A stretch of DNA of 64,000 bases from Bilabrum cf. latius (GCA_965178125.1 OZ237758.1:682001-746000); one strand, 5' to 3'. Shown: positions 9,696-59,971, counted from the stretch's first letter. The notes: a model not told the origin generated them from the letters alone. Numbers and translations: made by a program.

Positions 9696-11044
9696 TTACA
9701 CCAGGCTTGAAATTGATTCGCAACGCGTTCCGAAGAAGCCGGTGAAGCAGTTGCAGGTGCCCGACGAGTAGTCGCACATGCCGCGCCCAGAGCAGTCGAG
9801 GGCAGGCCCGCTGTTAGCTGCGGTCTTGCCAGCAATCTGACTGGAACCGTCGCCGCCGAATCCTCCGTACGGGTCGGGCCCGGACGCGCACTCGATCTCG
9901 CTACAGCTGTTGCCTCGGAAGCCGACATCGCACTGGCACCCGTAGTAGGACTGCGAGTCGAACGCAGCCGTGTATCCCGTGTACCCGGTGTCGGAGACCT
10001 GCTTGGACATCCGCTGCAGGGACTGGCAGACGCCATGACCCGAGCAGTCCTCCGGGCACAGAGTCCTGCCGCAGTTGTCGCCAGTGAAGCCGTCAAAGCA
10101 CTGGCAAGTGCCGGAGCCGCGGTCGCAGCTGCCCCTGCCCGAGCACTCGATGAACTGATGCGCCGAGTTGCCGTCGCTCTCCATGAAACGGTCGCCGCTG
10201 TTGTAAGTAACGTTTGCGTACCACTTGTCGCCCGCCTCGGGAACGTCGGTGATGGTGCCCTGCTCCCCGAAAAAGATAAACACGCCGGTTCGCTTCGTCC
10301 TGCCGTTCACCTTGGTCTTCATCTCGAAGGCGTTGGCCTTAGAAGAGCCCTCCTCCGTATCAGTGGCCAAGTTTACAGTCTGGGGCTGGGACCACAGCTT
10401 CTCAATGTCCCGCTTGTACTTGAACACGAGCGGGTACGGTGAGGCGGCGTTGTCATACGAGACAACCTCTACCTCAAAGTTGAAGTCAAACTCGACGCGA
10501 AGGCCGTCTGTCACAAACGCATTCATACCATCCTCCCACATGTCGCCGTTCTTTGAGACATATCCTACCGCCGTAGTCTCGAAGTTCTGCCCAGCAGTTT
10601 GGAGGGCATCGAACGCCTTACCGTACGGGCACACTCGCTGCGACAACAAACAGACTCATGGGCTCATTGGGAGATAAGTGTCGCGGTAAAGTATTAAAAT
10701 TGTGGATCTCATTGTATCGCTCGGTCAATGCGCCGTTGTGGCTAGCACGGGGCGACTCACCTGGCTGCAGTCGTATCCTGTGTACATGTCGCGGAGACCA
10801 CCACGGCCGTTCGACTGCTTGAAACAGATGCATCTGTCTACCTGCAATATGAAAACTATCACAATATGGATGCTTGCACGCTTTATCGCTACATTTGGAA
10901 GGCCCGAATCGAAGCGAGCACTCGGCGCGCGCTCATTGCTGGCTGCCTCACCTCATTGCATGCTCCATGACCAGAGCAGGAGTTTGGGCACGCTGCAAAT
11001 GCGGCAGTTGCCAAAATTAGAGTTGCTGCCGCTACAGTTCTCAT
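9696..11044 (-). CDS. Tubular mastigoneme protein (Mas family), EGF-like repeats; 2 introns
   Basis: MRTVAAATLILATAAFAACPNSCSGHGACNE; RVCPYGKAFD; AHQFIECSGRGSCDRGSGTCQCFDGF; DCSGRGMCDYSSGTCNCF. Ends at TAA 9696-9698. Confidence 0.85.
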
Positions 11045-11230
11045 TGCGGTGCTTGGTATGAACAATGCTGCTTCGGGCAGGTTAGAAGCGCCTCCAAAGT
11101 GAAACTCGAAAGGATCGGATCAAGGTTAAACGAATTTTGTGTCCGTGGGGTCGAGCGCCACTCCGGAGCGCTCGCTTCCTTCACTAGATTGAGGCCAGTA
11201 CCTCCATCGGCTCAGTTTATCGGCAGAATA

Positions 11231-12598
11231 ATGATTACTGTTGCCCTTGCTGTTGCCCTTGCCGGCGTGGCAATCGCTGCATGCCCTAATTCTTGCTCCG
11301 GCCACGGGCGGTGCAACCAGGTGAGCGAGCGAGCGAACGCCAGTGAATTGTCCAATCCTGCCGACAAAGATGCGATGCTTCCCCGATAGAAATTTGCGTA
11401 TAATGTACGTATGTAGCGGAAATCATGCTTATAATTTCGCAGTACGACCAGTGCGAGTGCTTTGAGTCTGCGGGCACGCCTTGGGGCCAGCGGTACGAGT
11501 GGACTGGGCCAGATTGCTCCATGCGAACCTGTCCTCTTGGCATCGGTAAGCATATTATACGTCGTATATTTCATCGTAACCATCCGAATGCGCGAAATGA
11601 GACCGTTGTAACGCAAAGCATCTACCCCGAATACTCTTGCAGCGTTCGGCGACATCTCATCGCATGGCACGGAGCTCGAGGGCGACTTCGTGGAGTTCCT
11701 GGTGCAAAAGAACTTTGATGGCACCAACAGAGCATCTTCCGATGCTTCAGCGATGTCGCTTGACATTGACGTGAACGACTATCCCTTGGCAACAACCAGG
11801 CGGTTCGAAGTGCGCGTACTGACCAACGACGAGACTGGCAGTGGCGAGGGAACCAAGATCCAGTGGAAGCTAGACAAATTTTCCTCCTTTTCGGCAGCCC
11901 GGGCGGTTGTGGTTGGTACAGACAACGCGATCGTGCTCGGCTCGCAAGGCGAGTCGCTCGAGTGGGCCGCGGAGCAGGGCGCTGGCGTTGACACCGGCAT
12001 CCGAGTATCGATCAAGTCCGCCGTCACCACTGCATCCAACAAGTACGTGGAAATCCAGCCAAACAACCTGTATCGCTTTGTAGTGTCCGGACGCGACGGC
12101 CGCCCATACAAGGTGGGTGACGCCAACACAGCCCACCAGCAGATCGAGTGCTCCGGCAAGGGCTCTTGCGACCGCTCTAACGGCCGCTGCTAGTGCTTCC
12201 CCGGGTACGGTGGCGAGGCGTGCCAGCGCAACGAGTGCCCCAACCAGTGCTCAAACCACGGCATCTGCCAGACGCTGACACGCTTCATCGACGACGGCGG
12301 GGTGGCCACCGTCAAGTACCCCGCGGCGGGGCAGGACGGTAGCGCCTATGACGGCGAGAAGATGATGAGCTGTCTTTGCGATGCAGGCTACCGAGGCCCC
12401 GACTGCTCCCAGATCGAGTGCCCCTCGTACCCCGACCCCCTGGGCGGGGCGGGCGGGGACGGCCTTGACGGAGGCGACAACGTGGCCGAGGTGCGCGACT
12501 GCTCCGGGCGCGGGATCTGCGACTATTCGTCGGGCACCTGCGGCTGCTTCGCTGGCTACTACGGTGAGGCGTGCGAGCAGCAGACCACGCTCGTTTGA
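11231..12598 (+). CDS. Tubular mastigoneme protein (Mas family), EGF-like repeats; 2 introns
   Basis: MITVALAVALAGVAIAACPNSCSGHGRCNQ; MRTCPLG; AHQQIECSGKGSCDRSNGRC(TAG 12191)CFPGY; DCSGRGICDYSSGTCGCF. TGA 12596-12598. Confidence 0.87.
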
Positions 12599-13169
12599 GC
12601 GGTGCGTCGCGATGATTCGGTGGATAGATTTAATCATATCGACAAGCACTTTCAATGGTACACACAGCGCGCAATGAAGCCCACATGCAACCGAAAAACC
12701 GCGGTATGCGTTACAGTAGTAACCAAAGGCATTGACTTCTTCCCAAAAAATGCTGGCGGAGCGGAAATTGCGCCGCTTGTGGCGCGCGGCGTTACCAGTA
12801 GTCAGGAGATCTGATGCGCTCGGACCGGACCACACGCAAGGCCCTGGATCCGCGACTCCATACCGTCAGTCCTGGTCTGTAATATCAGCCACGACGCCTT
12901 CCATGCAACTTCTGCTCCAAATATTCCCGCGATACTTGGCCCTGTTCCGACTGTACTCGCTCCGAGACAGGGCACCAGGGATGGGTGGGGCCCAGGACTC
13001 ACCGCGCAGCAGCTGGCTGAACGGGGCTACGAGCAGCACATCCGATAAATAGATTACGGGTTATCTCACACTGCTTGTGCACATGCTGGCAGCAACACTT
13101 CGCACTGGTTTGTCGACGTGGGGTTGAACCCCTTCTGATGCGTCCAAGATGGACCGCAACATGGCAGCA

Positions 13170-15688
13170 TCACCGCATCTGCAGCACCTCAACGATGCGC
13201 TCCTTGCTTAGTCGCATGAATCCAGCTGTCTTAGTCACCGCGTCGAAATGCCTGACAATGAACTGGAGGAACTCGCGCTGCAGACCCTCAGCTGATGGAT
13301 GCTGATCAGCCCGAGCAAGCAACTCTGCGGCAGTGTCGATGCGCAGGTGCCTGCACACATGCCTTTGCAGCGACTCAGCTAGCCCATGCAGCATGTACTC
13401 GTGTGCAAGTGCGAATGCGTCGATGAGAGTTGCCCCTACTTGCCCGCTATCGTCCCCAGCCGTGGCGTCCCCGCAACTACTATCCGTGGCAGCAGCGCTG
13501 GCTGGACCACTGGCAGGCGACACTTTTTTCTCGCTTGGGGTTGCTGTGCTGTCTAATGCAACTGCGCCTGCATCTTGGCCAGACGGCCCGCTTGGCCAGG
13601 CGCGTATCCCAGATACTAGCCCTGTGTACAAGTAGCCCAGCACGATTCGAAAGGCAGCAGGATTCACCCCATCCACGCGCACCTCGCCGCTGCTGGACTC
13701 TGCCATACCAGAGGCAAACATGGCCTGAAATCTCTCGCTTCTGGCAGACAATACTGCCTTATGGGCGTAAAACCGTACAGCAGCCGCAGTTGAGGTACCA
13801 GCGCCACTACTAGCAGACGGCTTGGCTGCTTGGCTGTCACCAGCACGAGCGGACACGACAAACGTGACATCCGAGTGATCGCCACTTTCCAGCAAGCCGC
13901 CCATATCGGACGACAGCTGGAACATCCCCCCGCCCCATGCATGTGGCCGCTTTCCGGGCGATGCACCGACGTATGGGGCAATTGAGCCTGCAGGCGATGA
14001 CGCAGCTAGACCGGTGGCTGCAGCAGCAGCCCGTATCGGTTTTGATCCTGCTAGAGCCTCCTCGGCGCTGCCGGTTTTCGATATAACAGCACCAGCGGTA
14101 CCACCCATGGGACGGCCAGCCAGCGAAAGCCCGGGCTCGCTCTCCTCGTCTACCAGCACGAGCGTGTGCTCGTTATACGAAGCAATCTGAAGCACGCGCT
14201 GCTTCTCCAGTCCCTTGACCTTCTGAGGAACAACAGCGCGTTCCCACGTACCCAGACCCAGCTTTCCGTGGTCACAATTCCCGCACGCGAACACGTTGCC
14301 CTGGTCCGTGAGAAATGCGCTGTGGGACCAGCCACATGCCACCGAGCTGACGCCCTCCCCGTCGAGAGACGAGACCTTTGTAGGCTGCAGCCGGTTGGAG
14401 CGGGTACCAAGCCCCAGCTGGCCGTGCTCCCCACCGCCCCACACCCACACCCTGCCTTTTGAATCGACGCAGGCGCTGTGAAAGCCCCCGCACGCCACCT
14501 CGACAACCACGCAATCCTCCGGGAAGTTGCTCACATGGGTGGGCACATCCTTGTCCTCCTCATCCCCGTGCCCCAACCTCCCGAATCTGCCCTCTCCGCA
14601 CGTCCACACCATGCCCTGGTCGCTTAAAAACGCAGAGTGGAATCCACACGCCGCGATACCAATGATTCGTTCACCGCGCAGAGTCACCACCTCAGCAGGC
14701 ACTGACTGGTTCCCACCTGCCGCAGCCCCCCCGGTCCCCTGCCCCACCTGGCCGCCGCTGCTCGTCCCACTGCCGGGTGCAGCGGAGCCGTCCGTGTCCA
14801 GTTCCCCGCTTGAAGACTCGAAATCCCGACTACCTGCACCGACAATGCTTGCACCTGTGTCCGGACCGGCACCACTGGCAGTGCGGGCTCCATGATGCCG
14901 CCTCCCAGATGTCCCGCTCGTGGCTTCGTACTCGCCTGCTGTACCACCGCCCCCAAGGCCGCATACCCCGCTTTCTAGATCTCCCCACGAGAAGACTTTT
15001 CCATCCTCGGAGAGTGCCAGGGTGTGCCTGCTGCCGCACGCCACTGCAGCAATACAAACTCCGCTCAGTGCCGCAACGGCTTTCGGAATGGCGATCCCTT
15101 TGTCGTTCCCGTGGCCTAATTTTCCGAAAAGGCCACCACCAAAGGTATAAACTGTTCCTGAACGTGATAAACACGCGGTGTGATAGCTTCCGCAAGTCAC
15201 CTGCGGTAATGTGCTCGTACAAATTGTGGGATTCGTCTGGGCGATCTCAAACTGCAGATCTAGTTGTAGCCTATCGCACTGTGCAACGATCTGCCGGCAA
15301 TCTCACCTGGGCTATAGGCACATCACACAGAAATTCTACGGGGCGGGGTACGTACTTCCAGCCGGAGTCGTCGCCATGGCCCAGTCGCCCATCATCACCT
15401 CGACCACAGCTGAACACTCGGCCATCTGCAGACAAGCAGCATGAATGACCAGACCCAGCAGCCACTCCAATCATTGGAGTTGTAACCAATATGTCGAGAA
15501 GCAATGGTGAGTTCTGATCGTTCGTATCCCCGAGCTGCGACTTGAGACAGAAACAGTAAGTGCAACTGCCGATTGAGAGGGCGTGGATACGTAGCGATGA
15601 AAGATTATATGCCGGGAATGGCAACGCGATGGTAATATCTTACACCAAGCTATCCGTCACCTCCTCTTCCCCATGCATAGAGCACCAT
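13170..15688 (-). CDS. RCC1-repeat and BTB/POZ domain protein; 2 introns near the 5' end
   Basis: Exon 1 MVLYAWGRGGDG(TAG)LG. Multiple RCC1 repeats (CGRGDDGRLGHG, VACGGFHS, WGGGEHGQLGLG). BTB motifs HSDVTFVV, FYAHKAVLSARSERFQAMF, FRIVLGYLYTG. TGA 13170-13172. Confidence 0.9.
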
Positions 15689-15833: not shown

Positions 15834-18800
15834 ATGCCAACAATAGGAGATCAAATAGTTGTTATACACTGCGATCTGCAGGTTGTGTTCATCGGTGGGC
15901 ACATCGGATGCGTGGATGTTGTGCAGGTCAAGACGGGAGACTTGGTGCATCGGCTCACGGGACTTGCAGACACTGTTACAGGAATAGCAACCGATGGAGA
16001 TTCTATTGTGGCTGCAGCAGACGCTGCAGGAAATGTGGCAGTGTGGAATTGTAGGTCTGGGCGCCGTATGTGGCGAGCCCTGCTCCCGTGCAGACCAGCA
16101 ATTGTCGCAATACTGCCGCAAATACCGTCCACTAGCTTTTCTGCCCGATCAGCTGCGAAGCGGTCGTCGTGGTCCGGATTTGTTGATATTTTGGTAGTTG
16201 CATCGAAGAGCAGCGTATATGGAATTGACATGAAAGTGAGAAAACTGCTGGCAAAGGGACTGCATTGCTCTTGCTCGTAAGGATCACCACCCCTATTAAA
16301 ATGTACCTCGTTAAGTGCGCAGGTTGGTGCCATAGAATGGAAGTATGGCCGTGACGCTGACGATATAGGCGCTCCAGAGTTTGTCGCACTAGACGTCACG
16401 ATTGGCAACGATACGATTGTGCTGCTTCGCGACGATTCCCAGGCAGTCGGCATTGACGCTGCTGTGAGAGGCAACATGCGATACTCTACGACGCATACAA
16501 TCTAAGTTTTAGTACAACGTAGCCAATACGATCAGTAAGACTCTCTCTCTCGCAGTGCGGACGGCTGGTGTGGCGCCTGGCCATGCCTGGCTCCGGCTCC
16601 GCGCAGGCAGGCGATGCGCAAGTCCGCTCCATGCCAGGCAATCGGGCCGTTCTATCGGACGGACTCGGGAAACTTGTACTGCTTGAGGACACGGACAGCA
16701 GAACAGCGGTGCAGTGCAAGTGGACGTCTTCTGTCCAGTCCAAGCCAGCGAGGGCCACCTTGCCCGAGGGTCCAGCAAGAGGAGGACGAAGCTTCTCGCC
16801 CGGACCGACGAGGCTCGTTCGCAGACTCCCGCGGTAGTAGCTAGGAACTGAAGCGTTGGAGGATGACCACGTGCTGGTACACCGAGACAGTTTCATGTGG
16901 ACGGTAAGCCTGGAAGACGGAGCCGTGTCATCGCTCGCGGAATCCACGGACGCGACTCTGCCCGCTCGGGAGCACTGGGTGGCAGTGGCAGCCTACGACG
17001 AGCACCACAAGAGTGGAGGTCTTGTGTCAAGGCAACTCGTTGGGCTGACGTCCAAAGGCAAGCTCCGGTTCCGAAAGCAGACGGCGCGCACGCTGTCATC
17101 TGCCGGCGAGATGGAAGTGTGCGACCCAGCGATCCCCCTCATCCCGTTCCGGACAGCCCTGACTGCCTGCAACGGGGCTGCGTGGGTCATGGCCATGCAG
17201 TCGGTGGGCGAACAGGGGTCCTGGCAGGAAGGCACGCCTTGCTTTCGCGGAGCAACCTGGTCGCCCGAGCGAGCCGGCACTGCAACTGACACGGTGTCAG
17301 CCACGCCAGCGTACGCGCTCACAGGCAAACCAGTGTCAGCCACAGCCAGCTGTTCGCGTGACGGATCTACCTTCTTTGGGTACTCGAATGGAAGTATTGC
17401 ATCGTACAGCAATCGACTTGCGTCAGCTCGCTGGGTGTCATCGGCAGAAGGAGGCGACACAACGGCTGGAGCATCCTCTGCCTCTGCCTCGACCCTAGCC
17501 TCTTCAGAGAGCAAGCTTATGCGACGATACGAAATGACGGGCCCGTTTGGATTCGTAACAGCCACGTCAGCCGTTGAGCCGAACTCAGAGGCGATCCTTG
17601 CCAGTCTAGCACCGGACGGCGCGACAGCACCAAGACTGCTTGGTAGCTCGCAGGCTGGGTTGCGGCCGGGATCGAGGCCGCAGGCTTCTCAGCAGGAAGG
17701 CAGCTTTGGCTCCTCCGGCGAGATCACTGCCATGGCTCACATTTCCTCCGAAGAAAGCAAAGTTGTTGCGGTTGACTCGACCGGTAGCATCCGATGCCTA
17801 ACGGCACTCAGTGGGATGGAAAAATGGCGCATCGACAGCGATGACTTAGCCATGGCAGTGTTTGGGGGACGGCGGGAGGGGCTGTCTGGTATGATGGCAG
17901 CAATGGCTGTCAATGCGGCGACTGCAACGGTGTATGTTAGCCTGCTAGCGGTTCCATCGACCCACCCAGTACTCGTTGCGGTTGACGCTGCCACTGGTGC
18001 CATTGATTGGAGCTTTGCAGGTGCCAGCCAGCTGGGCGGTCTGATTCGGATTGACGGCGGAATAGCCACCGATGAAGCCTCTGGATAGCTGCTGGTTTGC
18101 GGTACAACTGGAACGGATGGCTACACGTCGGTGCTGATCAGCATTGACAGTCACACGGGCAAGCTGAAACACACCGTCGATCTGCAGTTTAGTGCTTGCG
18201 CTGACACGCTGCGAGTTTCGAAACGGTACGGGCGGATCATCCTGTATGACCGCACTGACAGACGAATTGTTGCCATGCCACTAGATCTCAGCGACGGAGA
18301 CATACAGTTCATCTGGCACCTGCAGGCAAGTTTGGCTGCCGCTGACGAGAGCGCGGTTGCAAAGACGATCCGAGGTCCCAACGGTCCCAAGCGCAGCGTG
18401 ACAGCCCGTGCACTGCAGGGGTCTGCAGACGGCAAGCCAAACAACGGAGCCTCAAGCGCAAGCGCAAGTGGCGCCGGTGCCGCTGCTCCGCCTCGTCGGG
18501 CGCCCAAGCTAGCTGTCGCCAGGGGTGGATTCTCCCGCCGCTCTGGCATGCAGAGCCAGAGGTCGCTTGGGTCCACAGTGATCAGCGGGCTGGACCTGGC
18601 AGAGATCCAGGCGAGATATTAGCACTGCTCCATAGAAATCGACGACTCGCAGGGCGTGGCAGTGTGCCTACTGGGCACCACTGGTGTGATGGTGTCGATA
18701 GACGTGATTGGCGGAGCGGTCGTGGGTAGGGAGGTCATCACGGGAGACGAAGGCATCAAGGGCGCCACCCTCAGTCGAAAGAGCCAGCACGTGGGGCGAG

Positions 18801-20587
18801 ATGATGAGGACACGGGAACGGTTCCATTGCTGTCCGCAGGCAACGGAGTGGTGGCGGTGGGACAGGCCAGCAGCATCCGAGTGTTCCGCAGCCGGGATCT
18901 CGAGGAGGCGCTAGCACTGCCCGTTGAAACCGGGTGCACAATTGCGGAGATCAAGCACTTTGGCGCCGGCAATGTCTTTGATCCGTGCGGGACCAGAAAC
19001 CCGCTACTGCTGCGGCTGCAGGGCGCGCTACCACCTGGAGGAGGCGACGATCCCATCAACCTCAAGGAACTAGCCATTGCCAAGGCAAGCAGCGGACGGT
19101 CCATGTCGCAGTCGCATCGATAGCTCTCTTTTAGGCAGGTGGGCAACTACCAGACACTTGCCACGGATGGAGCCAGCGGACCTCTCCCCACGGCGGTGGG
19201 CTCCTACGGAATCGTGGTGGTGGGAGCCGCGGGTGAGATCAAGCGGATCCTCCTCCCAGAACTTCTTGGCCCCCTAAAAATAGTGACCGACAATGACGTC
19301 AACCAGCACGTCAAGTGCGGGATGCCAATTCAAGAGTTTGAACAGCAACAGGACAGCAACACTGCGCGTCAGCACTGCTGCTGCTGCTGCTGCAGTCCAA
19401 GCCCTGGTATCGTTGCGGCTGTGCAGGCCTGGCGTCCGTACGTCGGAGCTCTCTTCGCAGTGACATTACTGATCATGGAGTGGTGCCAGATGGCTGGATT
19501 GGCCATAAGTACCGCTGCAGTGTCACCCACTCTACAGTACACGTCTGTGGGCCTCCTACGAGCTACTTTCTTTGGACTGGAGACGGGAACGTTCTGGACT
19601 CCGGCAGCCATTGCGACAGCGCTCATCTGTGTCATCGTGCTACTGACGGTGTCCAAGGAGGCACTGTCGCGATGGTACACGGCCAATACCACGTCAGCAT
19701 TTGCGAACGCTGTAAGAGTCACCGCCGATGCCTTCGCCCTTGCATCCACGACGGTCCTCATCACCCCGATCGCGGGGGTGCTTGCGTCGGCTGTCGACTG
19801 CACAGAACGGGACGATGGACAGCTCCACTGGGACAGGAATCCAGAGGTGATCTGCGCAACCAACATAGAGCATCAAATCGCCGCGGGGCTGGCGCTCGTG
19901 GTGGGGCTGCTGTGGTGCGCGGCAATGCTCAGGCTTGTGCGAGTTGGAGGTCGGTTGGACAGGCTGCGGATCGCAGGCAACCCCCTGTCGTGGTCCAAAG
20001 ATGACACGCTCTCTGCAAGCAGGAACAAGCACGTGCTCGGGGTGAGAGGGGCTTCCAGGTGGCACCTCGCAGCACTCGTAGTCAAGATCGTGGGAACTGC
20101 GATGGTCACCCTGTTTGGGGCCAGGCGGCCATTGCTTGCTGCACTGGTTGTGCTGGTGCTAGACCTCGGCATGCTGGGGGTGGGTGTCAGGTTCCCGCCC
20201 TTCCCCACTCCGATCGCGAACCATTTCAGGTTCGGGTTTGACGCTGCCCTGGTGTGGATTCAGCTCGTAGGCGTGATTGCAGCCTCCTTGCGGCCGGACG
20301 GAATAGAGAGCGAGCGGGAGATATCGATGGCGCTGGACTACACACTCGGAATGCTGCCGATTCTAGGTCTGGTGCCGTTCATCGCGGGAGTCTACCTGTC
20401 CAATTCTGGCTGGCTAGACCGGTTCAGGGAAGCAGAGAAACGGGTCTCGCTCTAGCTGTCGGACGACTTGTTCTCGAGTTCGGGTGGGATCACGATGCTA
20501 GAAGGGAGCTCCAGGAGCGTCGGCGGGGGCGGAAGCAGGCACAATTTGCAGGCCTCCAGGAGGTCACTCGGAGCTCTTAGCGACTGA
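15834..20587 (+). CDS. Large WD40/PQQ-like beta-propeller protein with a C-terminal multi-pass (about 7 TM) membrane domain; at least 2 introns; start uncertain
   Basis: Propeller-like blades (VAVWNCRSGRRMW, VDAATGAIDWSF, IDSHTGKLKHTV). Track ORFs 16568, 16856, 18131, 18656 and 19139 share one frame separated only by TAG. Hydrophobic helices in 19440-20410 with a DC...P.VIC...H loop. TGA 20585-20587. Confidence 0.7.
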
Positions 20588-20735
20588 TAGAAATACAAGA
20601 TACGGGATGGAGGAATCTATATTATGCTTGCCCATATACAATCGCATGCTCTGTGGGTGTGTGTTGCACCAGCAGAAACGAAAAACAGATCTAATCTCTG
20701 TCGCATCCCAAATGATATCCCACAACAACCAAGGA

Positions 20736-23700: not shown

Positions 23701-24014
23701 TAATTATCTTCGATGCACACTACTGTGGTTGTACCAAGTACTCCGACGCTCGCGGAAAAACGGACGGCATATCTCCCAGAGGAAGCCAGCCGGAATCGAA
23801 TCTATTCGAGACACGACTTAAATGTGTTTGCTTCACCGCGGATGCAACGGATTGAGGTGGATTCCGGCTAGCGAATCCGAGCTGCAAACTGCAATGAGGC
23901 AACAGCCACGAGCAATACAAGAGCTACGATTCTACATCGCCAAGAAGAACTTTTCCAGACGCCAGTCAAGTACTAAATTAAGTTCACTTTCCGCACTCTG
24001 CGCCTCGGGGGCAT
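20736..24014 (-). CDS. Type II membrane glycosyltransferase with a C-terminal GT2 (GT-A) domain, 1092 aa with TAG=Gln
   Basis: Anchor RIVALVLLVAVASLQF. Track ORFs 22923, 22362, 22032, 21564 and 20772 are one frame joined by TAG. GT2 motifs LLSVIMAHYERP, DFEVIVVDDSS, YLGHSRNAGI(TAG 21381)RARGKYLFFVDDDD, EDHEYLARL. TGA 20736-20738. Confidence 0.8.
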
Positions 24015-24238
24015 TATTTGTGTGCATGTTGCAGTATTGTGCTGCACTGCGATGCATTCCAACGGATGCGACCAGTCGGCACCAAGCCCACCGCTTCGCG
24101 ACCCCTCCAGTAGCACAATACGCCTCGCAAGGCGCCACAGTGTCGCAGACTTTCAGGCTTAAATTTCTCTTTTACTTGCGTTCTGGCTGAGACCAGACCT
24201 TCTGAAGTAGCTTGACTAGCGGGGGCGCGCGCTCTGCA

Positions 24239-35221: not shown

Positions 35222-35567
35222 AGCGGCGATTTTTGTGCGTGAGTGTGCACCGCATATAGTGTTTATTTGTTTTAGCAGCTCTAGCACGAATTGAGGCCAA
35301 GAATGTAAATGTCTGCACACCTAAGCCACTGTTTCCTCAAGCACAATTAGGTTCCGCTGGGACTGCGCGGCGAACAGCTATTGCGACCAGTTGCGACCAG
35401 AATTCAGCCGCCCGATCAGCAACAGTGGAAACACATTCTGCGATTCCAGCAGACCCAAGGCGACATTATAAGCCTTCGATAGGGCTTACTTCATCAATCT
35501 TACGTTAAACGTTCGATCCCTTGCGTTGCTCCTCGGGGGCTGACGTACATAAGGGTTCGAAACAGCC

Positions 35568-44930: not shown

Positions 44931-45807
44931 TGTTCTTATCAATGTCGTCAGAGGACTCCGCCGGGGAGGGATACAGCGGCAGAGTGCAGGCAGGTGGAGG
45001 ACAGCAGCGATGGGAAGAGACAGCAGAGCGGCAAGGCTTGGCGAGCAGAGGTGAACATGAGTGATTGGTGGGGTGGTGACAGGAGCAGACGGGATGCGAT
45101 GGGCAGCAGGTGGTGTGAGATCGAGAGCGGGGGAGAGAGGGCAAGAGGACACTGGGGGATTCCAAGATACACGGAGGCAAGGGAGGATGGCGAGGATCAG
45201 GCCCTGAGGGCGCGATACCAGAGGCGTGCCTGGGACGACGGAGGGGCAAAGACAGGCCCGATCCAGCCATTTGGGCTCGTGAGCGTAAAGGCCCAAGGGA
45301 GACGGAGGGATGGGAAGTGGGCGCAGCCGAGTGGGTCCAGAGCACGAGGGCGCAGAGGATTCCTGACGAGGGCTGACAGTACGTAGGATGACAGCAGATC
45401 AGATCGGGGTTCGGAGTTGACAGGGAGGCGCTGGAGCGGGCCTGAAAACAGACGGATATGGGTAGCGTGTACATCTGGGACGAGTGTGGTATATCATGTG
45501 CGAGACGTGTGGAGGGGACTGTCCCTGGGGGAAAGCGAGGTGCGGGGTGGGAGGAGGGAAGTCTTCTTATAAATGGATCTATTTCCCATTGTGGAGGTGG
45601 ATCCGTGATTTGGTCATTGGGCATGTAGAAGGACCTCTGAGTGTTGCAGAATTCAATTATTTGAAGATGAAGATACTACTAGACTAGAATCTAGGGCATC
45701 GACACTTCCAAGCGAGGTAGTGGTCCCAGTAGCGATTACTGCAGAATACAATCAACTAGACCATTTGAAACACACGTTTTATGCATCATATCAGTGCCAG
45801 CTACGTT

Positions 45808-48800: not shown

Positions 48801-51800
48801 GCCAGACAACCCCTTCTTGATTGCTGTCATCGACACCGATGCCGTTAATGCAGGCAGTTCCAGCTGGGACGAGGCTGACTTTGAATTCGGCAGACTGGAC
48901 CCTGACCCCCTGGCCCTGTAGGCAAGCGCTGGCCTCGTGCTGCAGGAGTGCTCCTCTGCCATCCCCGGCGCTTGTGCCCCCGAGTGGATGGGACTGAACG
49001 TGTCCCTGCCTGCTGGATTCGATCGGTCCACCGTGCAACGAGAACCAATATCTTCTATGGTGATGCAGATGCCCCGCGCTTTGGATATTCCTCGGGCTGG
49101 CATGAACGGGGCAGTGCAGCTCGACGGGGCTCGCTCCCATGTGGTGCTGCCCTCCTTCCGGATCGTGACTGGGTTCACCCTGCAGGCCTGGATCCAGCCG
49201 TTCCACGCCAGCTCCACGCAGACGATTTTTGCCAAGCAGAGCGCCATTGGAAACGTTGTATTTGCGCTCAGACTGAGCGCGTCACCGGGTGCGTGTCCTG
49301 AAGGGGTGGATGCATGCCTCACGGCTCAGCTAGGACGGTCCATGGTGCCAGTACTGCTACCATTCGTCCCAAAGTAGGGTGTTCCCGGCAATATTGCCAG
49401 TGAAAACTCAGAACTGCAGTGGAATATTGCAGGAGCTTAGCAGCATCTGGCGGTGTCTGTTGACATTTTACAGCGATTCTCGCCAATTTAGGTGGTCCGC
49501 GACGAACCTGATTTTGAGGAATTGCTGAGGTCAAGAAATTGCACACACTCGCAATTGATGATCATATCAAGTGGATCGTAGGAAGCCTTCATGCGTGGTT
49601 TCGATGTTGTCCTTCTGAAGACGATGCGGAATGGCCAGGTCAGCTCCTGCCACGTCTTGCCCTACACCAGCTGGGAGGGCGGCCGCCTAGCCACAGAGCT
49701 GTCCCGTGGCCTGCCGTGGATCCTGGGCGCAGAGCTGGCTACAAGTGAATATAAGCCATAGGCAGGATTCAGAGGTCTAGTAGACGACGTGAGGATGCAT
49801 GCTGGCGTGGTGCCAGACGCGCAGATCAGGCGAGATTTGCGTGGACAGCCGCCCTTCCTGCAGAATTATCAGCACCCGTCACGATTCGCGCGACTGACTC
49901 GATGTGGGATTGACTACAGTGGCTAGCCTATCGCCTGTAGTCTCAATTCCACCACGAACGGCAGTTCTTATGCTCAGCAGGTTGGCTGGAAGGCGGCCTT
50001 TGCACATGTCAAGCGAGCCTCGCATTTGCTCACTGCTTTCAACTTTGACAACTCGCCGACGTACGAGTCCTCAGAAAGCATGGAAGCCATGCTTTCAAAT
50101 AACCCATTCCGGAGCGCATTCGACGAAGCCATGGGTAGAGTAGCCGATCCACCGGTGGAGCACCTCGGCTGGACTGGCATGCAGCGGTCACTCAGGCAAT
50201 GGATCAACGAGAGCAGCCCAGGGAGGTGGGACGAGGGCAGCGTCAACCTGCCTTCAGACCTGGTGGTATCTTCTGGCCGGCGACATGGAGGTGAACTTTC
50301 ATCGCCATTCAGCGCAACCGCGCTGCTTACGTCCTAGCTGCGGGAAACCAGGAATGCGGTAAGTGCTGGTGATGTGTCGCCAGAGGATGATCTGTTGCCG
50401 CGGCAGTTTCACTTTCTGCTCAGGCAAGCCATCGAGAGCCCCTCGTCGTTTGGCACAGTATCAGACTGGGGTGTGCAATTGTTAAGGCCCATGCCTGAGG
50501 GTGGGTATCAGCAGCGTCTGTCCGAGTACCGCAGCAGCTCTATCGATGAAGATATCGAGGTGTACCCGAGCTATGTCACAGGTGTAGGGGTTGTGGTACC
50601 ACCAGCAGTTCCAGCCTTAGTTGCGACGTACTTGGGCGGGGCTCGCTGGGTACCCAGCCGCTTTCCCAAGGTTGCCCTTGATGCTGCGACGGTTGTCGTC
50701 CCCCCGAATCGCACGTCAAGGATATGTCTCCCGGTCCTGAACTCTGCAGTCGGCAGCTTCGATGAATCGAAAATCGACCCCGCTTTGGGAGTGAACCACT
50801 TCCGGCTACCTGCAGGCGGATTCGACTAGAGTACAGTGCTGTCAGGCGTGAGTCAGGCCATGCTTCTTCTCGGATCGAACCCCATAGCCGCTCGATCTCT
50901 CCCACCTGGTCGTGGCACCGTGGATAGGGTCTCAGGCGATAGCGCGATTTCCTCTGCTCTCGAGTAGATGCTTCTGGAGCTAACAGGCGAGAATGTCCTA
51001 AGGGGCAGCTCAAATCCGCTCGTGCAAATACTTGTCAGCTAGCTGGGCCCTGATCGACCCCTTGCCGCTCAACAGGGCACCCTGAAGCGAGACGCGGCCA
51101 TGGTGCTGATCAACTCTGGTGCCTTTTCTTCTTACCTCGGCTACACGTCCAGTCTGGGTGCCTGCTTTGACTTCGATCCGCCCCCGACGAACGATCCAGG
51201 CCGAGAAGAAGTCAGCAGTGTTTCGATTGTTGGGTATGGATTGACAGATCCCGAATGTGAGAACAGCATGGAACACAGAGGCTTGGTATGCGACACAGTG
51301 TCAGAGACGCACAGCAGGATCGGGATAGCCTTTGTTGTTGTTGCGGTGTCGTGCCCAAGCCTGATCAGTGCAGAGGCCAGCGGTGAAAATGGGAATGCTG
51401 GTTTCAATGCTGGCGATAGTATCACCCTGCGGTTCGATAGCGATACGGCGATGCCAGATATCAGTATCGCCAGCAGCAGCTACAGCTCCAACCAGACGCG
51501 GCCCTCGGACATGCTGCCACTATCAAGTGTTGCTGGTTAGGACGTGATCGAGTTTGATCCGCCGCTGCCAGGCAAGCACATCTCGTTCTGGGTCAATCCA
51601 AGGGAGCTTCGAATCGTCTTTACATCCACCACGGATGAACAGAACGACATCCTGAGCTTGCTTCGAAGTCAGGATGCAATCGTAGATGGCCAGACGGAGA
51701 TCGTAGACGACACCATTGAGGATGTCCTTGGGCTGTCATCACAGCAGCTGGCGAGGCAGCGCGACGCCGCAGCTCAGCTGGGCCTTGCAAATGCCGACGG

Positions 51801-54800
51801 AAGTCTGCCAAAGGGGATTTCTGGAACGATTTACATTAGGCATGGCTTGGATCAGAGGCCTGCCTCACAGTCACAGCCACAAGGAGACGATGACGACATT
51901 TCTCCCAAGTTGGACGGAAGCCAGCGAGTGCGTGTCGTTGGAAGTCTTCGGAGTGATAGCAACAACTGTATTCTGCAGCCGAGTCAGGTTGTGCTGACTG
52001 GCTCGTGGGGCGTGGCGCCGAAGCCAACCCCGCTGCCATGGGCATTAATCCTTGGAGTACTGTGTGCAAGCATGCTTGTGATTGCTCTGGTGTGGTACCT
52101 AGTGACGGCCTATGTCGAGCAGCGTACAGCTGAGGCAGAGGCCATTCGAACCATAAACGCAAAGGTGCAGATGGAGCAAGAACAGAATGAGAGGCACGTG
52201 ACCCGCACCCGGTACGTCCTGCACGAGCTCAAGCAGCCCTTCGCCTCCGTGGTCATGGGCCTGGACCAGATGGACGAGACTCTGGTGGAGCTGCAGCAGC
52301 AGATGGTAGAGAGCCAGCAGCAGGGCGAGGGGTTGGACCAGGCATCCATCGAGGAAGCCCGCGAGGAGATGGAGTCTACTGTGCGCATCATGCGGTCCAG
52401 CAGCGTGGCGATGCACCACATCATCACGGACGTGCTGCTGATGGCTCAGATCGAGGCACAGGGTCTGCAGCTGAAGATGAGGCCTTGCACGCTGGCATCA
52501 TCGATTCGTTCTGCGTTGGTGACGCTGATCCACCAGGCCGAGGAGGGCGGCGTGACGATGCGTCTGTCGTTCTACGACTGCAGGGAGCAGCATGAGCGGA
52601 CCCGGTCGCTAGCTGAGAAGCGAGCGATGCTGGAGAACGGAGAGCTGCCGCCGGAAGCTCTCGAATTTGTGCGTGCCACAAGCACGCGGGATGCAGCTGC
52701 AGGTGTTGAGGAAGATGGCAAGCAGGCCACGCAGGGTCCATCGCTGGTGCAGGTGGCCACTGGTCTGGATGAGGCCTCGGGTACAGAGGGCTCTGAGTCG
52801 CTGAGTGATCGAGAGGATGGGTATGATCGTGTCGATGAGGGCAAAGCAGCGTACGATGACGACGGACTGCAGGGTCTGGAGGAAGTGCCTCCAGTGGTGG
52901 CTGACACACAGAGGCTGGCGCAGTGCGTGAGGAACTACCTGGCCAATGCCATCCGATTTGCCGGATCCGGCAGCAGTATCGACGTGCAGGTGGCGGTGCT
53001 CCGGCCAGTGCAGGCAGCCAGGCTGGCTCGGCGCGCCCCCAAGTCTCTGGACACGAGCAAGGATCCGCCAGAGCCTCCGTTGCGCATCAACCTGTCCCGA
53101 GTGCGAGAGGAGGGCGAGAGCAAGACACAGCAGGTGAGCGCGAAGGCGGGCCGCTTCATCGCCTCGCAGCTGTCGTCGCGTCGACTGGGTCAGCCGCGGA
53201 GGCAGCGGCGGTGGTCCATGACTGGGTTGGTGCTGGGCAAGGACGACACAGGCGGGGAGCAGATGGCGGCTGGTGCAGACTCTGCCGGAGACTCCTGGGC
53301 CTCCCCGCGGCGCACCCGCCGGGCATCGATTGCCACACGTGTGCCAGTCACAGGCCGTGGCGCGAACGGAATGAAGGATCCGCTGAATGGCGATAATGGA
53401 TACCAGCAGACAGGCTCAGTGGATGTGTATCGCCCTACTATGGAAGACGGCCGCCGCACGATCCGGGTGATCGAGGACACGGGCACGATCGTGACGGAGA
53501 GAGCAGAGAGGGACCTGGCTGCCACCAGGAGACGCAGGATGGGCGCGCAGAGCAGGCACAGGGATGATACGTTGCAGAGGTCCACGAGGAGCATACTCAA
53601 GAAGCGAGGCGAGGAGAATGCGATCGGCCATTCTAGCAAGTCATCAGCAGGTATTCTGCTCGGGTAGCGCAGCACAAGTGTGGGGCAAAGCCGTAGTGGC
53701 AGCGAGAGGGAAAAACACCGCGTGGCAACGTCACCCAGTTAGTCAGCGCATGAGTCAACGGCAGGTTCCGTATCCACGCCCAGTAAGACTGATGGATACT
53801 CCGATACTGACTCAGTCAGGTCTATTTCAAGTTCTGGAGAGACTGCATCGGCTCCAACCTGGGAGCAAGCAACGGATCGTGGCTCCAAGAAGTATCATGA
53901 GCCATCTATCGGTGGACAGGATTGCTGTTCTTTCGTCTCCGGGCTCTTGATCTGCGTCTCCAGGTTCTGCGGATGCGGCGAGAGCGGCCGTGCTCGAGCA
54001 AATCAAGTTGCTCCAGAGGAGAACGATCCAATGGCCAGTGGCGGCGCCTTATCCCAGGATGACCACGCGAAGTCATCGCGGCGCCAGTTCCGCAAAGATT
54101 CAAAGGCGACCCGCAGGGCCTGCCGGCTGCAGACCCGCCTGCCCATCCTCATCCGGGTCATCGACCAAGGGCCTGGGGTGTCGAAGTCGGACTCCAAGAA
54201 ACTCTTCCAGCCGTTCCAGCAAGTCAATGCAGCGGCTGACAAGAAGCAGGGCGGCACTGGGCTGGGCCTGGCGCTGGTGCGGTACTTGGCGCGAGAGCAC
54301 AAGGGCATTGCGTGGCTGGAGTGGAGCCGGGAGGGTAAGGGCAGCTGCTTCAGCTTGCTGCTTCCGCTGCGACTGGCTGACGAGCTGCCTGAGGAGGAGC
54401 AGGACGTGCACGGGACAGCGAGGGCCCAGCTGTTTGGCCGGCAGTCCAGAAAGACGGGCCCGCAGCACCTTCATGCAGGCCAGGCAAGCGGATCCAACTA
54501 CGCATCTCTTGGGCTAAGCCAGACAGAGGCGTCCGTGTACGGCATTCGAGGGCTTCGGAGACAGGAGACAAGCGGGATGGCCGCGGGAAGTCCGTTGCGT
54601 GGGTCGACCCGCAGGCTGTCGGGAGGAGCGCGGGAGCCTAGGCTGTCGGAGCAGGGCAAGAGTGTGTCCCGGGTGTTCAAGCTCTAGCAGCAGCACGCGT
54701 AGAAGTAGCAGCAGCAGGAGGAACCGGAGCAACCGGAGCAAACGGAGCAGCAGGAATGGCGAGCAGGAGGCATAGTACTGCAATCGAGCGCACCACAAGG

Positions 54801-55851
54801 ACAGTCAGGATTGGTAGCAGACGCTGATGAGCCGGTTGATATGCAAGGTCTTCTTGCTACCACCACCAGCGACTCGCAAGCTCGTTCCAGTCAACCGAGA
54901 GGAACTTTAAAGCAGCCGGGTCGCGTATCTCAGACTGGCAGTGAAGCATCTAGCGGGGTTGACTCGCAGCTGAGCCATACCACGGGCACAAAAAAGAGGC
55001 GCAAAGTGGTGAAGAGAAAGAAGAAGAGAGACAGCAGCAGGGGCAGCAGCAGCGGATCCACAACCGGCCCCGTCGGTGCTTCAAGCGCGACCGCAAGCAC
55101 GAAAACATTGGGACACGACCAAACGAATGGGAAGAGTGAGAAAAATGCCCAAACGGATGGTCGACAAAGTGAGATCGCAGCAGCAGCTGGGTCTCGCCCA
55201 ATTGCTCTCGTACACGATCTAATTGCAGGTGCCAGTGCGCACCAGCGAAGCGATAGAAAGGCCCGTCGCGAGGAGTTCAAGGGGAAGCGCGTGCTTGTAA
55301 TCGAAGACGATAGGTCCCAGTCCATGTTCCTCACGCGCCAGCTGCAGAAGAGGGGCTTCGAGACGGTCGCGGCGCTCAACGGAGCCGACGCAGTCAAGCT
55401 GCTCGTCCCCCCAGAGCACTTGCCCGAGGACGTGCTCGCCTTCCCGAGCCGGCTGGCAGAGGCCACGAGCACTCCCCAGCGATTCGATCTGGTGACATGC
55501 GACTACACGTTGCCAGGGCTGCTGGGCCCGCAGATTATGGAGCTGCTGCGTTCTGTGGGGCTGCAGCGGGAGCTGCCTGTGATCGGGCTGACTGCAAACG
55601 TGATCGCGCTGGACCTGGAGCGATTCAACGCGAGCGGGGTGGACCGTGTGTGTCACAAGGCGGATGCGACAAAGAAGAGCCAGATCGACCGAGTGCTCGA
55701 TTTCGCGAGGGAGCATCTGCATCCGGGCAGTGGTGGTGCAGCTGTCGCTGCACACGAGAGCGTGGGAGGCGGTATGCCGGCTGTTGGCAGCTCCGCCAGC
55801 GCTGGGGTAGCAACGGGCGGCTCTATCCACCATGATGGCATCGGCTAGTGA
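45808..55851 (+). CDS. Giant membrane hybrid histidine kinase HK3 (same architecture), about 3347 aa with TAG=Gln
   Basis: ATG 45808 (in-frame alternative at 45781). Track ORFs 45853-54811 share one frame. LamG-like GAVQLDG...GFTLQAWIQP; TM WALILGVLCASMLVIALVWYLV; H/N/G boxes; receiver VTCDYTLP. Ends TAG-TGA, with TGA at 55849-55851. Confidence 0.87.
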
Positions 55852-56048: not shown

Positions 56049-57342
56049 TCATAGCTAGGACTTCCACTCCGCGATGTTCTTGTCGAGGCAACTCAGCGGC
56101 ACCGTGCAATCCACCCCCTTGACCTTGTTGAGCTCCTGGTACAGGGGCAGCACGATAGCATTGATGAATCCAAGCTGGAATTTGGGCAACGGGATGGGCT
56201 TGTGGCGGTTGAAAATGGGAGTCACAGGGAGGTTGGCCTCGGCCTCCTTGTCCCCCTGGTCGTAAAACTCGGCGATCACGCGCTCCGTCCACTTGATGTA
56301 CAAGTCCCAGGGCTTGGCCGGGTTGCTGACGTCTGCCGCGTGAAGGGCCAGGAGCATCACCAGCTGCTGCACCTCGGGGTCAGCCTTCACGTCCAGCCCG
56401 ATGCCGGCAGAACTGCCCCTCCTAGAGGCGAGCATGGACCGCCTCCTCGACTTGGTGCCTGCTCCCACCTTGGGTGGGCTCGATCCGCCCGCCTTGCCGC
56501 CGCCTGCCCGCGCGGCATCACTTGCGGATGCACCACCCTTGGCTGGGGTTGGGGATGCCGGCGCACTGGCAGCGAGCGAGGCTGCCTTGTCCGCCTGGGC
56601 CGCCTCCAGCTTGCTGGTGAGCCTCCCGAGGTTCTTGAAGTGGAGGGCGTTATCCGTGCCCAGAATGAGCGCGATCATGTCCTTCCTGACGGAGCTCCTG
56701 TCCACACCAGACAGCGAGCTCAGCACGTCGTGCCCAGGCTTGCGCATCGTCGCGAAAGCAGTGGCAGCGTGCATGTTCTCCAATGGACTCTGGTCGTTGT
56801 AACGGATCGCCAGGGGGTGCTGGGTTGCGACCAAGAAGGCGTTGTTCACACCAACGTGGCCCGCGTCATGCGCCACCGCAGAGAGGACCATGGCCAGGCG
56901 CTGCGTGTCAGACATCCAACCCTGCATGCCGCCGCCTGACGTAGATATGAGGAAGTGACAGGACTGAGTGACGTCAGCCACATGTGTCCTGGTGTGGTAC
57001 AGGTTGTCCTTGTACGTGTTCTCGATGGCGAGCACCCATTGCGCCGCGTGCTGCCTGTCCAGGTTCAGCCTGAGCGGGAGTGCTTGACGATTCAAGACCC
57101 GCTGGGCCACGATGCTGAGTATGCGGGCCGGTGCAAACTCGGCCGCGGCAAACACGTTGAAGTCCCACCGATCGATGTCGTTGAGCAGCTTGCCCAGCAT
57201 ATCGGCCTGTGACATGGAGCCCAGCCTCTCCTAGCTCCTGCCGAATACGGAAAAGGTGGGGCAGCTCGCAGATCGAATCAGCTGAGCAGGGACTGGGGCC
57301 TCATCTGTCTGCGTCTTCGGCTGGACCACCTGCTCATCGGGT

Positions 57343-57373
<31 letters not shown>

Positions 57374-59051
57374 CAGTAGAAGCAGCCTCTGCGCCCACAG
57401 CTGCGGCTCCGCCCGCGCCACTGCTTGCTACAAGCGTCGCGGCGGGGGAAGATTGTCCTGTTCCCTGAGACTGTGTTCCCTAGCTCGCCCGTTGATCAGC
57501 CGGCCGGATGCCAAGCTTGACAGCAGAGGGCGGGAGGGGCAGCTGCCGCATTGACATGGACATGGCAGGCATGCTGCCCTTGAGCCCCTCGCGACCTGCT
57601 CCCTCCTTCCTGCTGGCGCCCTTACGAGAAAGCCAAGCCCCTTTCTGCACCTGCTGGTGACCCGCCGCAGCTGCGTGCTGCCTGGGCAAGCCCACTGTGG
57701 CATCTGCGGTTCTCGATCTTCGCCTCTCGACCTGCAATTCGTCCACATTGTCCACCCCAATCCCCCCCTCACCAGCGTCCCCCGGGAACTCCTGACCGGA
57801 CTAACCTGCATTCCCCGCGCGACCGATCCCCGCAACCCCAAACCCAGTTGCCGAGTCTTCAGCTCCTCTCCTGCTCCAATCAGGCCCCTACCCCTGGCCC
57901 TTGCCCTTGCCCTTGCCGCTCGATCGAGAACCCACAGCTCCGGCAACACCGGGATCGGACGGTGCTGCAGAGACGGAGGCAAGAGGCGGCGGCCCTATTC
58001 CCGTGGCTGCGATCACGTCAGACTCTCTCGGGGGCCCGTCTTCTTGTTCCACCCCGGCTGGCCGTTCGGAGCCACCATCCGGCGCCGCGCCGTCGCCGGC
58101 AGCGGAACCTAGCGCGTCCTTCGCGGCGGCGGGTTGGATGTCACCTGCCGACAGAGAGCCCGCGTGCCTGGATCCAAATGCCCTCGTCGTGCCCCTGGCA
58201 GATCCAGGCGCCTTTGCATACCCGCCCAGCGGCGCCCTGAGACCGCCCGCGGCAGCGAGAGCTCTGACTGTCCTCTGCTTCTGCGAGGTTCCGAAGGAAC
58301 CCACGGCGCCGTGGTGGGGGATGTACTGCGCCATGAGGTAGGATTTGACCTCCGGGTCGTCAAACACGTCTGGATTATGCACGAAGTGCTGCGTCATCGC
58401 ATGTTCGAACGTTCCCTGGTCTGCAGCGCCGTACGCGACCCCCTGCACGATGTTGGTCAGAATATCGAGGTCCTCCAACCCGATCTCGGCCTTGCCTCCG
58501 GTCAGCGCCGCAATATTGCGAAGTCTCCTTAGCATTGATACGGCTGCGACTGCATCTGACCCGGAAGCGTCGTCCTGATCATCCGAGAGCCCGTCGTGAA
58601 GGTACGAATCAGAATCAGAATCGCTCGTATCGGGAGACGGGCGGGCGCCGCTGCTTGAGGCTCCAGACGCAGCCGCATTAGATGGTGCGGCTGCATCACT
58701 TCGACCAACTCTTCGTTTTGAGGGATGCCGCGATGACTGTGTGACAGATCCGGATGCCAAACCGACCTTTCGTGCCAGCTCGCTGGCAACCAAGAGGAGG
58801 TCTCTTTCTGGAACAGAGGCGGTCCTCCGCCTCATTCCTCTTGCTGCCACATCAGCAGCTTCCGATGCAACCATGCGAAATGACTCTTTCGAGCCGGCTG
58901 CTTGGCTGTCACCAGACGTGGATGGCGTGCCTATGGCTGTCGTAGTCCGAACCGGGGGATTCGGCCGCTAAGGGGGTACCGGCGGCGGCTACACCCCAAC
59001 ACTTGACCCTATGGACGCCTTCGCAGCTTGTTTTCCGGCAGTTCCTGACAT
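56049..59051 (-). CDS. Class I cyclic-nucleotide phosphodiesterase with a long low-complexity N-terminus, 1000 aa with TAG=Gln
   Basis: PDEase_I motifs YHTRTHVADV, HDAGHVGVNNAF, LENMH, ILGTD, LHAADVSNPAKPW, EFYDQGD, FQLGFI. Track ORFs 57888, 57480 and 56055 are one frame joined by TAG. TGA 56049-56051. Confidence 0.9.
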
Positions 59052-59318
59052 AGTAGCGACAAGGTCTGCTGCAGCTGTGGGTCAAGTGGACCAAATAAGC
59101 TTACTCAGCTTACAATTGAAGTCTACCCCGCGCTTCAGGTGAGCTCAAATGGTTAGTTACAGATGTATACGAAACTAACAGACCAATTGTGCCGTGATTA
59201 TGTCGTAGAGGGCGAGAGGGTGCACAGCACCGAAAAAAAGTATTTCTGTATAAAAACACGGTACAATAAAATTATGGATTTCTGGCCACCGCGAACTACA
59301 TTTGCCCAACTCAAGACA

Positions 59319-59971
59319 ATGGCAGCAGCGGCCGGTGGGCGGGATGATGCAAGGGGGGAATCTGATGATGTGGAGCTCATGTCTAAGCAGGTGACTGCTG
59401 AGTCCAAGCGTATCTATTTGAACTTGCGCCAGAATCCGAGGGGCCGGTACTTGAAGGTGCGTATATTGGATCCTTTGCAGCATGCGCTGTTGGCTGCGTC
59501 CATCTTTCAGCTATTATATGCTCTATGAAGAATATTCCCGCTATTGTTGTTGCTGTACGTGCGCAGATCGCTGAGGTGAGCCGCAGCGGACGAAGCACCG
59601 TGATCATCCCGGAGAGCGGATGGATCGCATTCCGTGACCAGCTGAACGGCTTCATCTCTGGAAGTCACCAAACGTCTGCCGGAATCAAGCCTGCACCAGC
59701 CCCGGTACCGAGGGAGGAGAGTTCCAGCGGGCAGCAGGTTTGGGTTGAGAACCTGCCGTGGTCCACGACCTCGGAGGAGCTTGCGGCTTACTTCAAGCAG
59801 TGCGGCACCGTGGAGCACTGCGAAATCAACACAGAGCGCAGTGGAAGGTCCCGCGGCACCGCTGTGGTCCGTTTTTCGGACTCCAAGGGCGCCGATGAGG
59901 CAATCGCAAAGCTGCATGATACTGAGGTGGAGGACCGCCGCATCAGGGTGCGTCTGGACCGCTTCGGCTAA
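59319..59971 (+). CDS. Nucleic-acid-binding protein: single PUR (Pur-alpha) repeat plus RRM; 1 intron
   Basis: ELMSKQVTAESKRIYLNLRQNPRGRYLK|IAEVSRSGRSTVIIPESGWIAFRDQL matches a PUR repeat across intron 59457-59566. RRM VWVENLPW...GRSRGTAVVRF. Ends TAA 59969-59971. Confidence 0.85.

Follow-up and report, generated by a model that had tools for sequence, protein, structure and literature searches.

The stretch of DNA analyzed here (OZ237758.1, positions 682001 to 746000; "the window" refers to all 64 kb of it) is protist nuclear DNA with a G+C content of 56-62% (about 58%), and the subject of this study is the meaning of TAG and TAA in its genes. When TAG was read as a sense codon, approximately 16 genes were recovered. 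These comprised four giant hybrid histidine kinases (HK1 to HK4), paralogs that together supplied 91 of 125 in-frame TAGs, as well as a phosphodiesterase (PDE), a GT2 glycosyltransferase, PQQ, RCC1-BTB, GnT-I, a PTEN-like phosphatase, PUR-RRM, and three EGF-repeat genes (MAS1 to MAS3), which carry the putative label "mastigoneme." Two open reading frames (ORFs) in the window had no assigned family. The reading we favor, with a probability of roughly 85%, is that the window comes from a GC-rich protist, that stramenopiles are its nearest named relatives, and that in its cytoplasm UAG is read as glutamine while UAA and UGA are the only stops (NCBI table 15).

The window was compared with public sequencing runs and with a related metagenome contig. 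A DNA run set (X1 to X4) contained the whole stretch, and three further runs from two studies (X5, X6, and X7) contained 70-86% of sampled words. Contigs from X1, X5, X6, and X7 were placed on window positions 4000-23999, the range to which all RNA comparisons refer. The X5-X7 contigs skipped 12 GT..AG segments of 83-252 nucleotides (nt) that were retained by the X1 DNA contig, and a poly(A) run terminated one contig at position 12660, 62 nt after the TGA of MAS3. None of the runs is recorded as RNA; we read the X5-X7 contigs as mRNA because they are spliced and include one poly(A) end. They supported the models of MAS1, PTEN, GnT-I, MAS2, MAS3, RCC1-BTB, and PQQ, and the 3' untranslated regions measured about 45-250 nt in these contigs. 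The related metagenome contig, L001 (JGI; 3,751 nt, 52.6% G+C), was syntenic with window positions 9889-13364 and carried, in order, the end of RCC1-BTB, MAS3, and MAS2, at 70-77% amino-acid and about 71-73% nucleotide identity. It had in-frame TAGs of its own.

In-frame TAG and the gene ends

Across 12 ORFs (about 17,400 codons) we counted 125 in-frame TAGs, or 0.72% of codons, and no internal TAA or TGA. The other two frames of the same ORFs held 159 and 142 TAGs, near the in-frame number. Recognizable protein domains were located downstream of or around the TAGs, namely HATPase_c and receiver domains in all four kinases, PDEase_I, the C-terminal third of GnT-I, and GT2. An earlier reading made from the sequence alone (the sequence-only reading) had proposed that TAG and TAA are uncoupled, with TAG translated and TAA and TGA terminating, and these counts bear it out. 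They likewise agree with its remark that the kinase ORFs lack in-frame TAA (HK1, HK2, and HK3 have 34, 26, and 23 TAGs, respectively, and 0 TAA), and the frequent in-frame TAA at glutamine positions that, by its own account, would have spoken against it did not appear in any of the approximately 17,400 codons.

Fifteen gene ends could be placed, 13 of which were TGA and two TAA (MAS2 and PUR-RRM), with the ORF at 2686-3399 as a further TAA candidate. UGA is the usual stop here. The sequence-only reading had listed 18 ends, 16 of them TGA; its two TAA ends and the dominance of TGA were recovered, and its totals were not. On contig L001 two gene ends were observable, both TGA.

The best characterized TAA end is that of MAS2. 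Its C-terminus, CESISSLV followed by TAA, aligned column for column with CEQQTTLV followed by TGA in MAS3, the paralog match on which the sequence-only reading had already relied. The final EGF motif was present in 84 of 85 database homologs of MAS2 (P0141-P0225), and in 69 of the 84 motif-bearing proteins precisely 7 residues followed the last cysteine of that motif before the protein ended; ESISSLI, ESITTLV, and EEQTTLI are examples of such tails (a pattern like E-x-Q-T-x-[FL]-[VI]). Judged by these alignments, TAA is the terminator of at least MAS2. A separate observation on the family is that MAS1 departs from the fixed C-terminus and has a 21-residue tail.

In PUR-RRM, the TAA was found 7 residues after a complete RRM_1 match (residues 113-182 of a 189-residue ORF), consistent with its earlier description as lying just after the RRM. 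The candidate ORF at 2686-3399 would encode an acidic, coiled-coil-like product, and its codon usage resembled that of real genes (log-likelihood ratio of 0.164 per codon); the frame that overlaps it (2564-3475), with 6 TAGs, scored -0.039 and looked non-coding. Neither a Pfam match nor a homolog was found for this ORF. The evidence for TAA ends is thus thin, with MAS2 well supported, PUR-RRM plausible, and the ORF at 2686-3399 a candidate, and this counts against the table 15 reading, as does a sample of one 64-kb window with about 16 genes in which four paralogous kinases supply most of the TAGs.

So, too, do the ends of HK3 and PDE, which bear on whether TAG still terminates some genes. HK3 ends in TAG-TGA and PDE in TAG-CTA-TGA, and termination at the TAG is possible in both. 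A TAG was therefore present in the last two codons of 2 of 15 genes, where about 0.2 would be expected at a frequency of 0.72% (Poisson P of about 0.02), a weak excess; with 15 genes, power is very low. Former TAG stops, with translation now continuing to a back-up TGA close by, would be expected to leave the same pattern, and this is the explanation we favor for the TAGs of HK3 and PDE. At none of the 15 ends is TAG required for termination, as a TGA or TAA was present within 2 codons of each, and TAGs also occurred 12 and 44 codons before the stops of GT2 and PQQ, respectively, and within C-terminal receiver domains. We therefore consider it unlikely that TAG still terminates at some gene ends. 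The TAGs at the ends of HK3, PDE, and PQQ may be relics of TAG terminators or residual termination sites. With respect to genes that truly end in TAG, which the sequence-only reading had raised as a challenge to its own proposal, no placed end had to be explained in this way, and HK3 and PDE stay ambiguous.

The residue at TAG positions

The amino acid inserted at TAG had been left unnamed by the sequence-only reading, and comparisons with close relatives point to glutamine (Q). A HMMER search with residues 1150-2150 of HK1 retrieved 19 proteins, all of them fragments of 55-306 residues. Such short matches are what would be expected if a caller using the standard code had cut the genes of a relative at each TAG. 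A second search, with residues 1-1500 of HK2 and directed at shorter proteins, returned at least one match. Among the database fragments that shared 80% identity or more with HK1 or HK2, Q was observed at 10 of 12 TAG sites. Those matching HK1 were P0121 (87% identity; S and Q at its TAG sites), P0122 (81%; Q and R), P0123 (89%; Q and Q), and P0126 (93%; Q and Q), and those matching HK2 were P0135 (94%; Q at three sites) and P0140 (88%; Q at one site). A more distant fragment, P0127 (68% identical), had Q at 3 of 3 TAG sites.

The syntenic genes of L001 gave a further set of paired positions. Its in-frame TAGs paired in the window with Q and Q in RCC1-BTB, with Q, Q, and T in MAS3, and with E in MAS2, where a further TAG fell in a gapped stretch. 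In the other direction, the single TAG of MAS3 in the window (12191) paired with Q in L001. In total, Q was found at 5 of the 8 orthologous TAG sites, the remainder being T, E, and the site in the gapped stretch. The MAS3 TAG is located within the EGF motif C-Q-C-F, and the same position was Q in MAS1, MAS2, and L001. When the close fragments and L001 were combined, Q was present at 15 of 20 sites, compared with a background Q frequency of 4.7%, and no other residue recurred. On the strength of these pairings, TAG is glutamine here, and it would account for 125 of 925 glutamine codons (13.5%).

Several observations pull in the other direction. The two remaining sites among the 12 in high-identity fragments were S and R, and T and E were seen in L001. 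In one column of the kinase paralogs, TAG was aligned with Leu (CTG in three paralogs, with 16 of 20 flanking residues identical). Distant homologs were uninformative at most TAG sites, which sit at variable positions, and a neighbor-residue statistic showed no enrichment of Q beside TAG (0.048, equal to background); RCC1 had been read out of frame in this statistic, which was dropped. Few kinase paralog columns were informative overall (Q in 3 and L in 1, besides six single residues). Other comparisons contributed little: in PDB alignments of GnT-I, PDE, and GT2 the TAGs fell at variable or unaligned positions, only 1 of 4 TAG sites could be aligned in GnT-I homologs of about 50% identity or less, and an ESM Atlas search with MAS2 gave no usable match. 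At the GnT-I site NRP-x-YL, Q was present in 4 of the 12 closest matches, and across the wider family the position was D in 20 of 60, E in 11 of 60, and Q in 9 of 60.

Taken at face value, the Leu column, the single pairings with S, R, T, and E, and the acidic residues of the wider GnT-I family would suit a code in which TAG is sense but specifies a residue other than Gln (Glu, Leu, Ser, or several of these), in the manner of exLh (Leu) and Scotinosphaera (Ser). Such an assignment is nevertheless very unlikely, given that Q occupied 10 of 12 close-fragment sites and 5 of 8 orthologous sites against the low background, while none of the alternatives was repeated.

TAA within reading frames, transcripts, and gene models

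If TAA were used in the way that TAG is, between 23 and 49 in-frame TAAs would be expected, based on the ratios of A-ending to G-ending codons for CAR, GAR, AAR, TTR, and CTR in the same genes; none was seen (P(0) ≤ 7e-11). The two off frames of the 12 ORFs contained 63 and 54 TAAs. For the complete kinases, the corresponding numbers were 17 and 10 (HK1), 9 and 8 (HK2), and 12 and 10 (HK3), that is, 66 TAAs in the two off frames (mean of 33 per frame) versus 0 in frame. For these three genes the argument from absence is not circular, because the ORFs span from an N-terminal hydrophobic leader to a C-terminal receiver domain and the off frames hold 8-17 TAAs each. TAA is not a sense codon in this one 64-kb window.

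A code of the table 6 type, in which both TAA and TAG have been reassigned, TAA is merely rare through high G+C content, and TGA is the sole true stop, would be in keeping with the scarcity of TAA across the window (184 on one strand and 236 on the other, versus 529 and 481 TAG) and with the presence of an in-frame TGA 39 nt after the TAA of MAS2, still within the transcript. It is, however, highly improbable in view of the missing in-frame TAAs, which are present off frame, and of the position of the MAS2 TAA, exactly at the protein end conserved in the family and occupied by TGA in MAS3.

The transcripts also revealed how TAG itself is expressed. Twelve in-frame TAGs (5 in GnT-I, 6 in PQQ, and 1 in MAS3) were unaltered in the spliced RNA contigs, with 0 differing letters, and the mapped introns contained none of them. 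Here TAG serves as a regular sense codon that is expressed without editing. That the TAGs are not translated as such, owing to RNA editing, removal by splicing, or residence in pseudogenes, has negligible probability; no observation spoke in its favor, and it is contradicted since spliced and polyadenylated RNA contigs carry them unchanged with all introns elsewhere, frames of 9-11 kb are open except for TAG, and a related species retains the same genes, likewise with TAGs.

Table 1. Genes and ORFs of the window, with coordinates counted from its first nucleotide and TAG read as sense
Feature	Coordinates	Strand	Introns	TAGs and gene end	Remarks
Unknown ORF	248..1831	+		4 TAG; end TGA	527 codons
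Candidate gene, putative	2686..3399	+		end TAA	237 codons; gene-like codon usage
MAS1, EGF-repeat paralog	4310..5957	+	4403-4514, 4601-4695	stop TGA 5797-5799	415 amino acids
PTEN-like phosphatase gene	6004..7719	-	7106-7357	stop TGA 6257-6259	
GnT-I glycosyltransferase gene	7819..9644	+	7990-8072	5 in-frame TAG; stop TGA 9570-9572	all TAGs in spliced RNA contig
MAS2, EGF-repeat gene	9652..11049	-	10638-10760, 10840-10949	stop TAA 9696-9698	371 amino acids; RNA contig extends 44 nt past stop
MAS3, MAS2 paralog	11205..12660	+	11318-11439, 11545-11641	single TAG at 12191, paired with Q; stop TGA 12596-12598	poly(A) at 12660
RCC1-BTB gene	13170..15643	-	15197-15302, 15535-15643	0 TAG; stop TGA 13170-13172	
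PQQ, beta-propeller/transmembrane gene	16235..20633	+	16236-16322, 16464-16555	6 TAG; end GAC TGA TAG (20582-20590)	TAGs in spliced RNA contig
GT2 glycosyltransferase ORF	20736..24152	-		14 TAG; stop TGA	at least 2 TAGs within GT2 domain
HK1, hybrid histidine kinase ORF	24206..35221	+		34 TAG, 0 TAA; end TGA	3671 codons; HATPase_c and Response_reg downstream of most TAGs
HK2, hybrid histidine kinase ORF	35553..44930	+		26 TAG, 0 TAA; end TGA	3125 codons; one TAG (amino acid 3090) inside receiver domain
HK3, hybrid histidine kinase ORF	45769..55851	+		23 TAG, 0 TAA; end GGC TAG TGA (55843-55851)	3360 codons
Cyclic-nucleotide phosphodiesterase (PDE) ORF	56049..59081	-		7 TAG; end TCC TAG CTA TGA (56049-56060)	6 TAGs upstream of PDEase_I
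PUR-RRM gene	59049..59971	+	one, inferred	stop TAA 59969-59971	two frames
HK4, C-terminal part of fourth kinase	60114..63998	-		8 TAG; end TGA	runs off window

Beyond the code, the gene models (Table 1) were separated by intergenic spacers that were very short throughout (e.g., 123 nt between the TGA of GnT-I and the TAA of MAS2). The convergent 3' ends of MAS1 (plus strand) and PTEN (minus strand) overlapped in the RNA contigs, the former extending to 5957 and the PTEN contig running down to 5638. At a poly-glutamine repeat of GnT-I (EQQQQPQ; 8399-8420), several DNA and RNA contigs broke or were joined chimerically, which looks like an assembly artifact at a low-complexity, CAG-type repeat.

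The kinases had very large and weakly conserved N-terminal halves, with 30-36% identity among the four paralogs of 3,100-3,700 residues. Their C-terminal signaling halves were far closer to each other, as HK3 and the inverted HK4 shared 79% identity over 880 residues and 92% over 173. The 3' halves of the kinase genes have likely been homogenized, for example by gene conversion.

Lineage, mechanism, and comparison with known codes

The lineage is apparently stramenopile-like, as far as protein similarity can tell. The closest named GnT-I proteins came from Cafeteria (50-55% identity) and MAST-4 (48%), and among the MAS homologs a single taxon name could be read, that of an Ochromonas transcript. 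A quick single-gene tree of GnT-I contained no strongly supported set that included the query. As the species behind L001 also has in-frame TAGs, the code variant is older than one species. No report of nuclear UAG reassignment, or of any nuclear code change, in stramenopiles was encountered in the literature searched, from which subscription journals were mostly absent; as the underlying data are from 2025, such an account may already be published or under way. We tentatively suggest, at slightly less than even odds, that this is the first nuclear code change in stramenopiles and a clade-level trait (at least two species, with about 72% nucleotide identity over their aligned syntenic genes) in a GC-rich genome that terminates mainly with UGA, in which the TAG-TGA and TAG-NNN-TGA ends are relics of the reassignment.

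With UAG as glutamine and UAA as a stop, the decoder would have to pair with a third-position G but not with A, that is, have the anticodon CUA, and the release factor would have to stop competing at UAG while still reading UAA and UGA. A tRNA-Gln with anticodon CUA is thus predicted to decode UAG; it would read UAG and not UAA because C34 pairs with the G of the former but cannot pair with the A of the latter. The predicted counterpart is an eRF1 that has lost recognition of UAG and retained UAA and UGA. The sequence-only reading had proposed both components, a CUA-only suppressor tRNA and an eRF1 that tells UAG from UAA. The same argument, from a tRNA(CUA) and an altered eRF1, was made for Iotanema and for the rhizarian exLh by Panek et al., where eRF1 T32G (Iotanema) and L69A (exLh) were pointed to as relevant changes, and GlnRS is described there as using the anticodon as an identity element (PMC5304391). 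Among the objections is that ARAGORN detected 0 tRNA genes in the 64-kb window, which does not include eRF1 either, so that the mechanism is inferred from the codon assignments.

A split of UAG from UAA is not in itself new, and the sequence-only reading overstated its rarity in presenting the joint reassignment of TAA and TAG as the rule for most known nuclear codes: UAG-only reassignments are known in at least six lineages (PMC11687900). Those described include exLh (Leu) and Iotanema spirale (Gln) (PMC5304391), as well as Scotinosphaera (Ser), Protocruzia (Gln), Hartmannula and Trochilia (Gln), and phyllopharyngean metagenome-assembled genomes (MAGs) from TARA (Leu) (PMC11687900). The present case adds another lineage, with the same table as the glutamine group.

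Within that group, Iotanema spirale (Fornicata) is alike in having UAG alone reassigned, to glutamine, with UAA and UGA as stops and the same predicted mechanism; it belongs to another supergroup and its primary stop is UAA (PMC5304391), whereas here TGA ends 13 of 15 genes at about 58% G+C. Hartmannula sinica, Trochilia petrani, and Protocruzia tuzeti share the codon table (table 15, UAG as Gln), and UAG is a minority glutamine codon in these organisms (18.5-31.8%) as it is here (13.5%) (PMC11687900). All three are ciliates in which 93.5-100% of C-terminal alignments end in UAA (PMC11687900); the genes of the window end mostly in TGA, and they come from an apparently stramenopile-like lineage and have spliceosomal introns of 83-252 nt.

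The remaining codes differ in the residue or in the treatment of UAA. UAG is also uncoupled from UAA in exLh and the TARA phyllopharyngean MAGs (Leu) and in Scotinosphaera (Ser) (PMC5304391, PMC11687900), but the amino acid is not the same, as Leu and Ser were each found at 1 site here compared with Q at 15 of 20. Codes of the table 6 type, where UAA and UAG both specify glutamine, occur in many ciliates, hexamitin diplomonads, Ulvophyceae, oxymonads, and an aphelid (PMC11687900); they resemble the present code in the meaning of UAG and depart from it in that TAA had no in-frame occurrence here and terminates MAS2. Compared with ambiguous codes of the Condylostoma type, every placed end in the window has a TGA or TAA, and a TAG lies 1-2 codons upstream at two of the 15.

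It is very uncommon for UAA and UAG to change meaning separately. Every independent lineage in which they have done so offers a natural experiment that bears on how eRF1 gives up UAG without losing UAA and UGA and on how a tRNA-Gln(CUA) comes to be charged. The window adds a GC-rich, TGA-dominated, intron-bearing lineage to this set, with public DNA and RNA data and a sister species in metagenomes, and its interest would be higher should its placement among stramenopiles and a distribution across the clade prove true. In practical terms, gene callers that apply the standard code cut the proteins of this organism at every TAG, and its annotation, together with the metagenome bins of its relatives, needs table 15.

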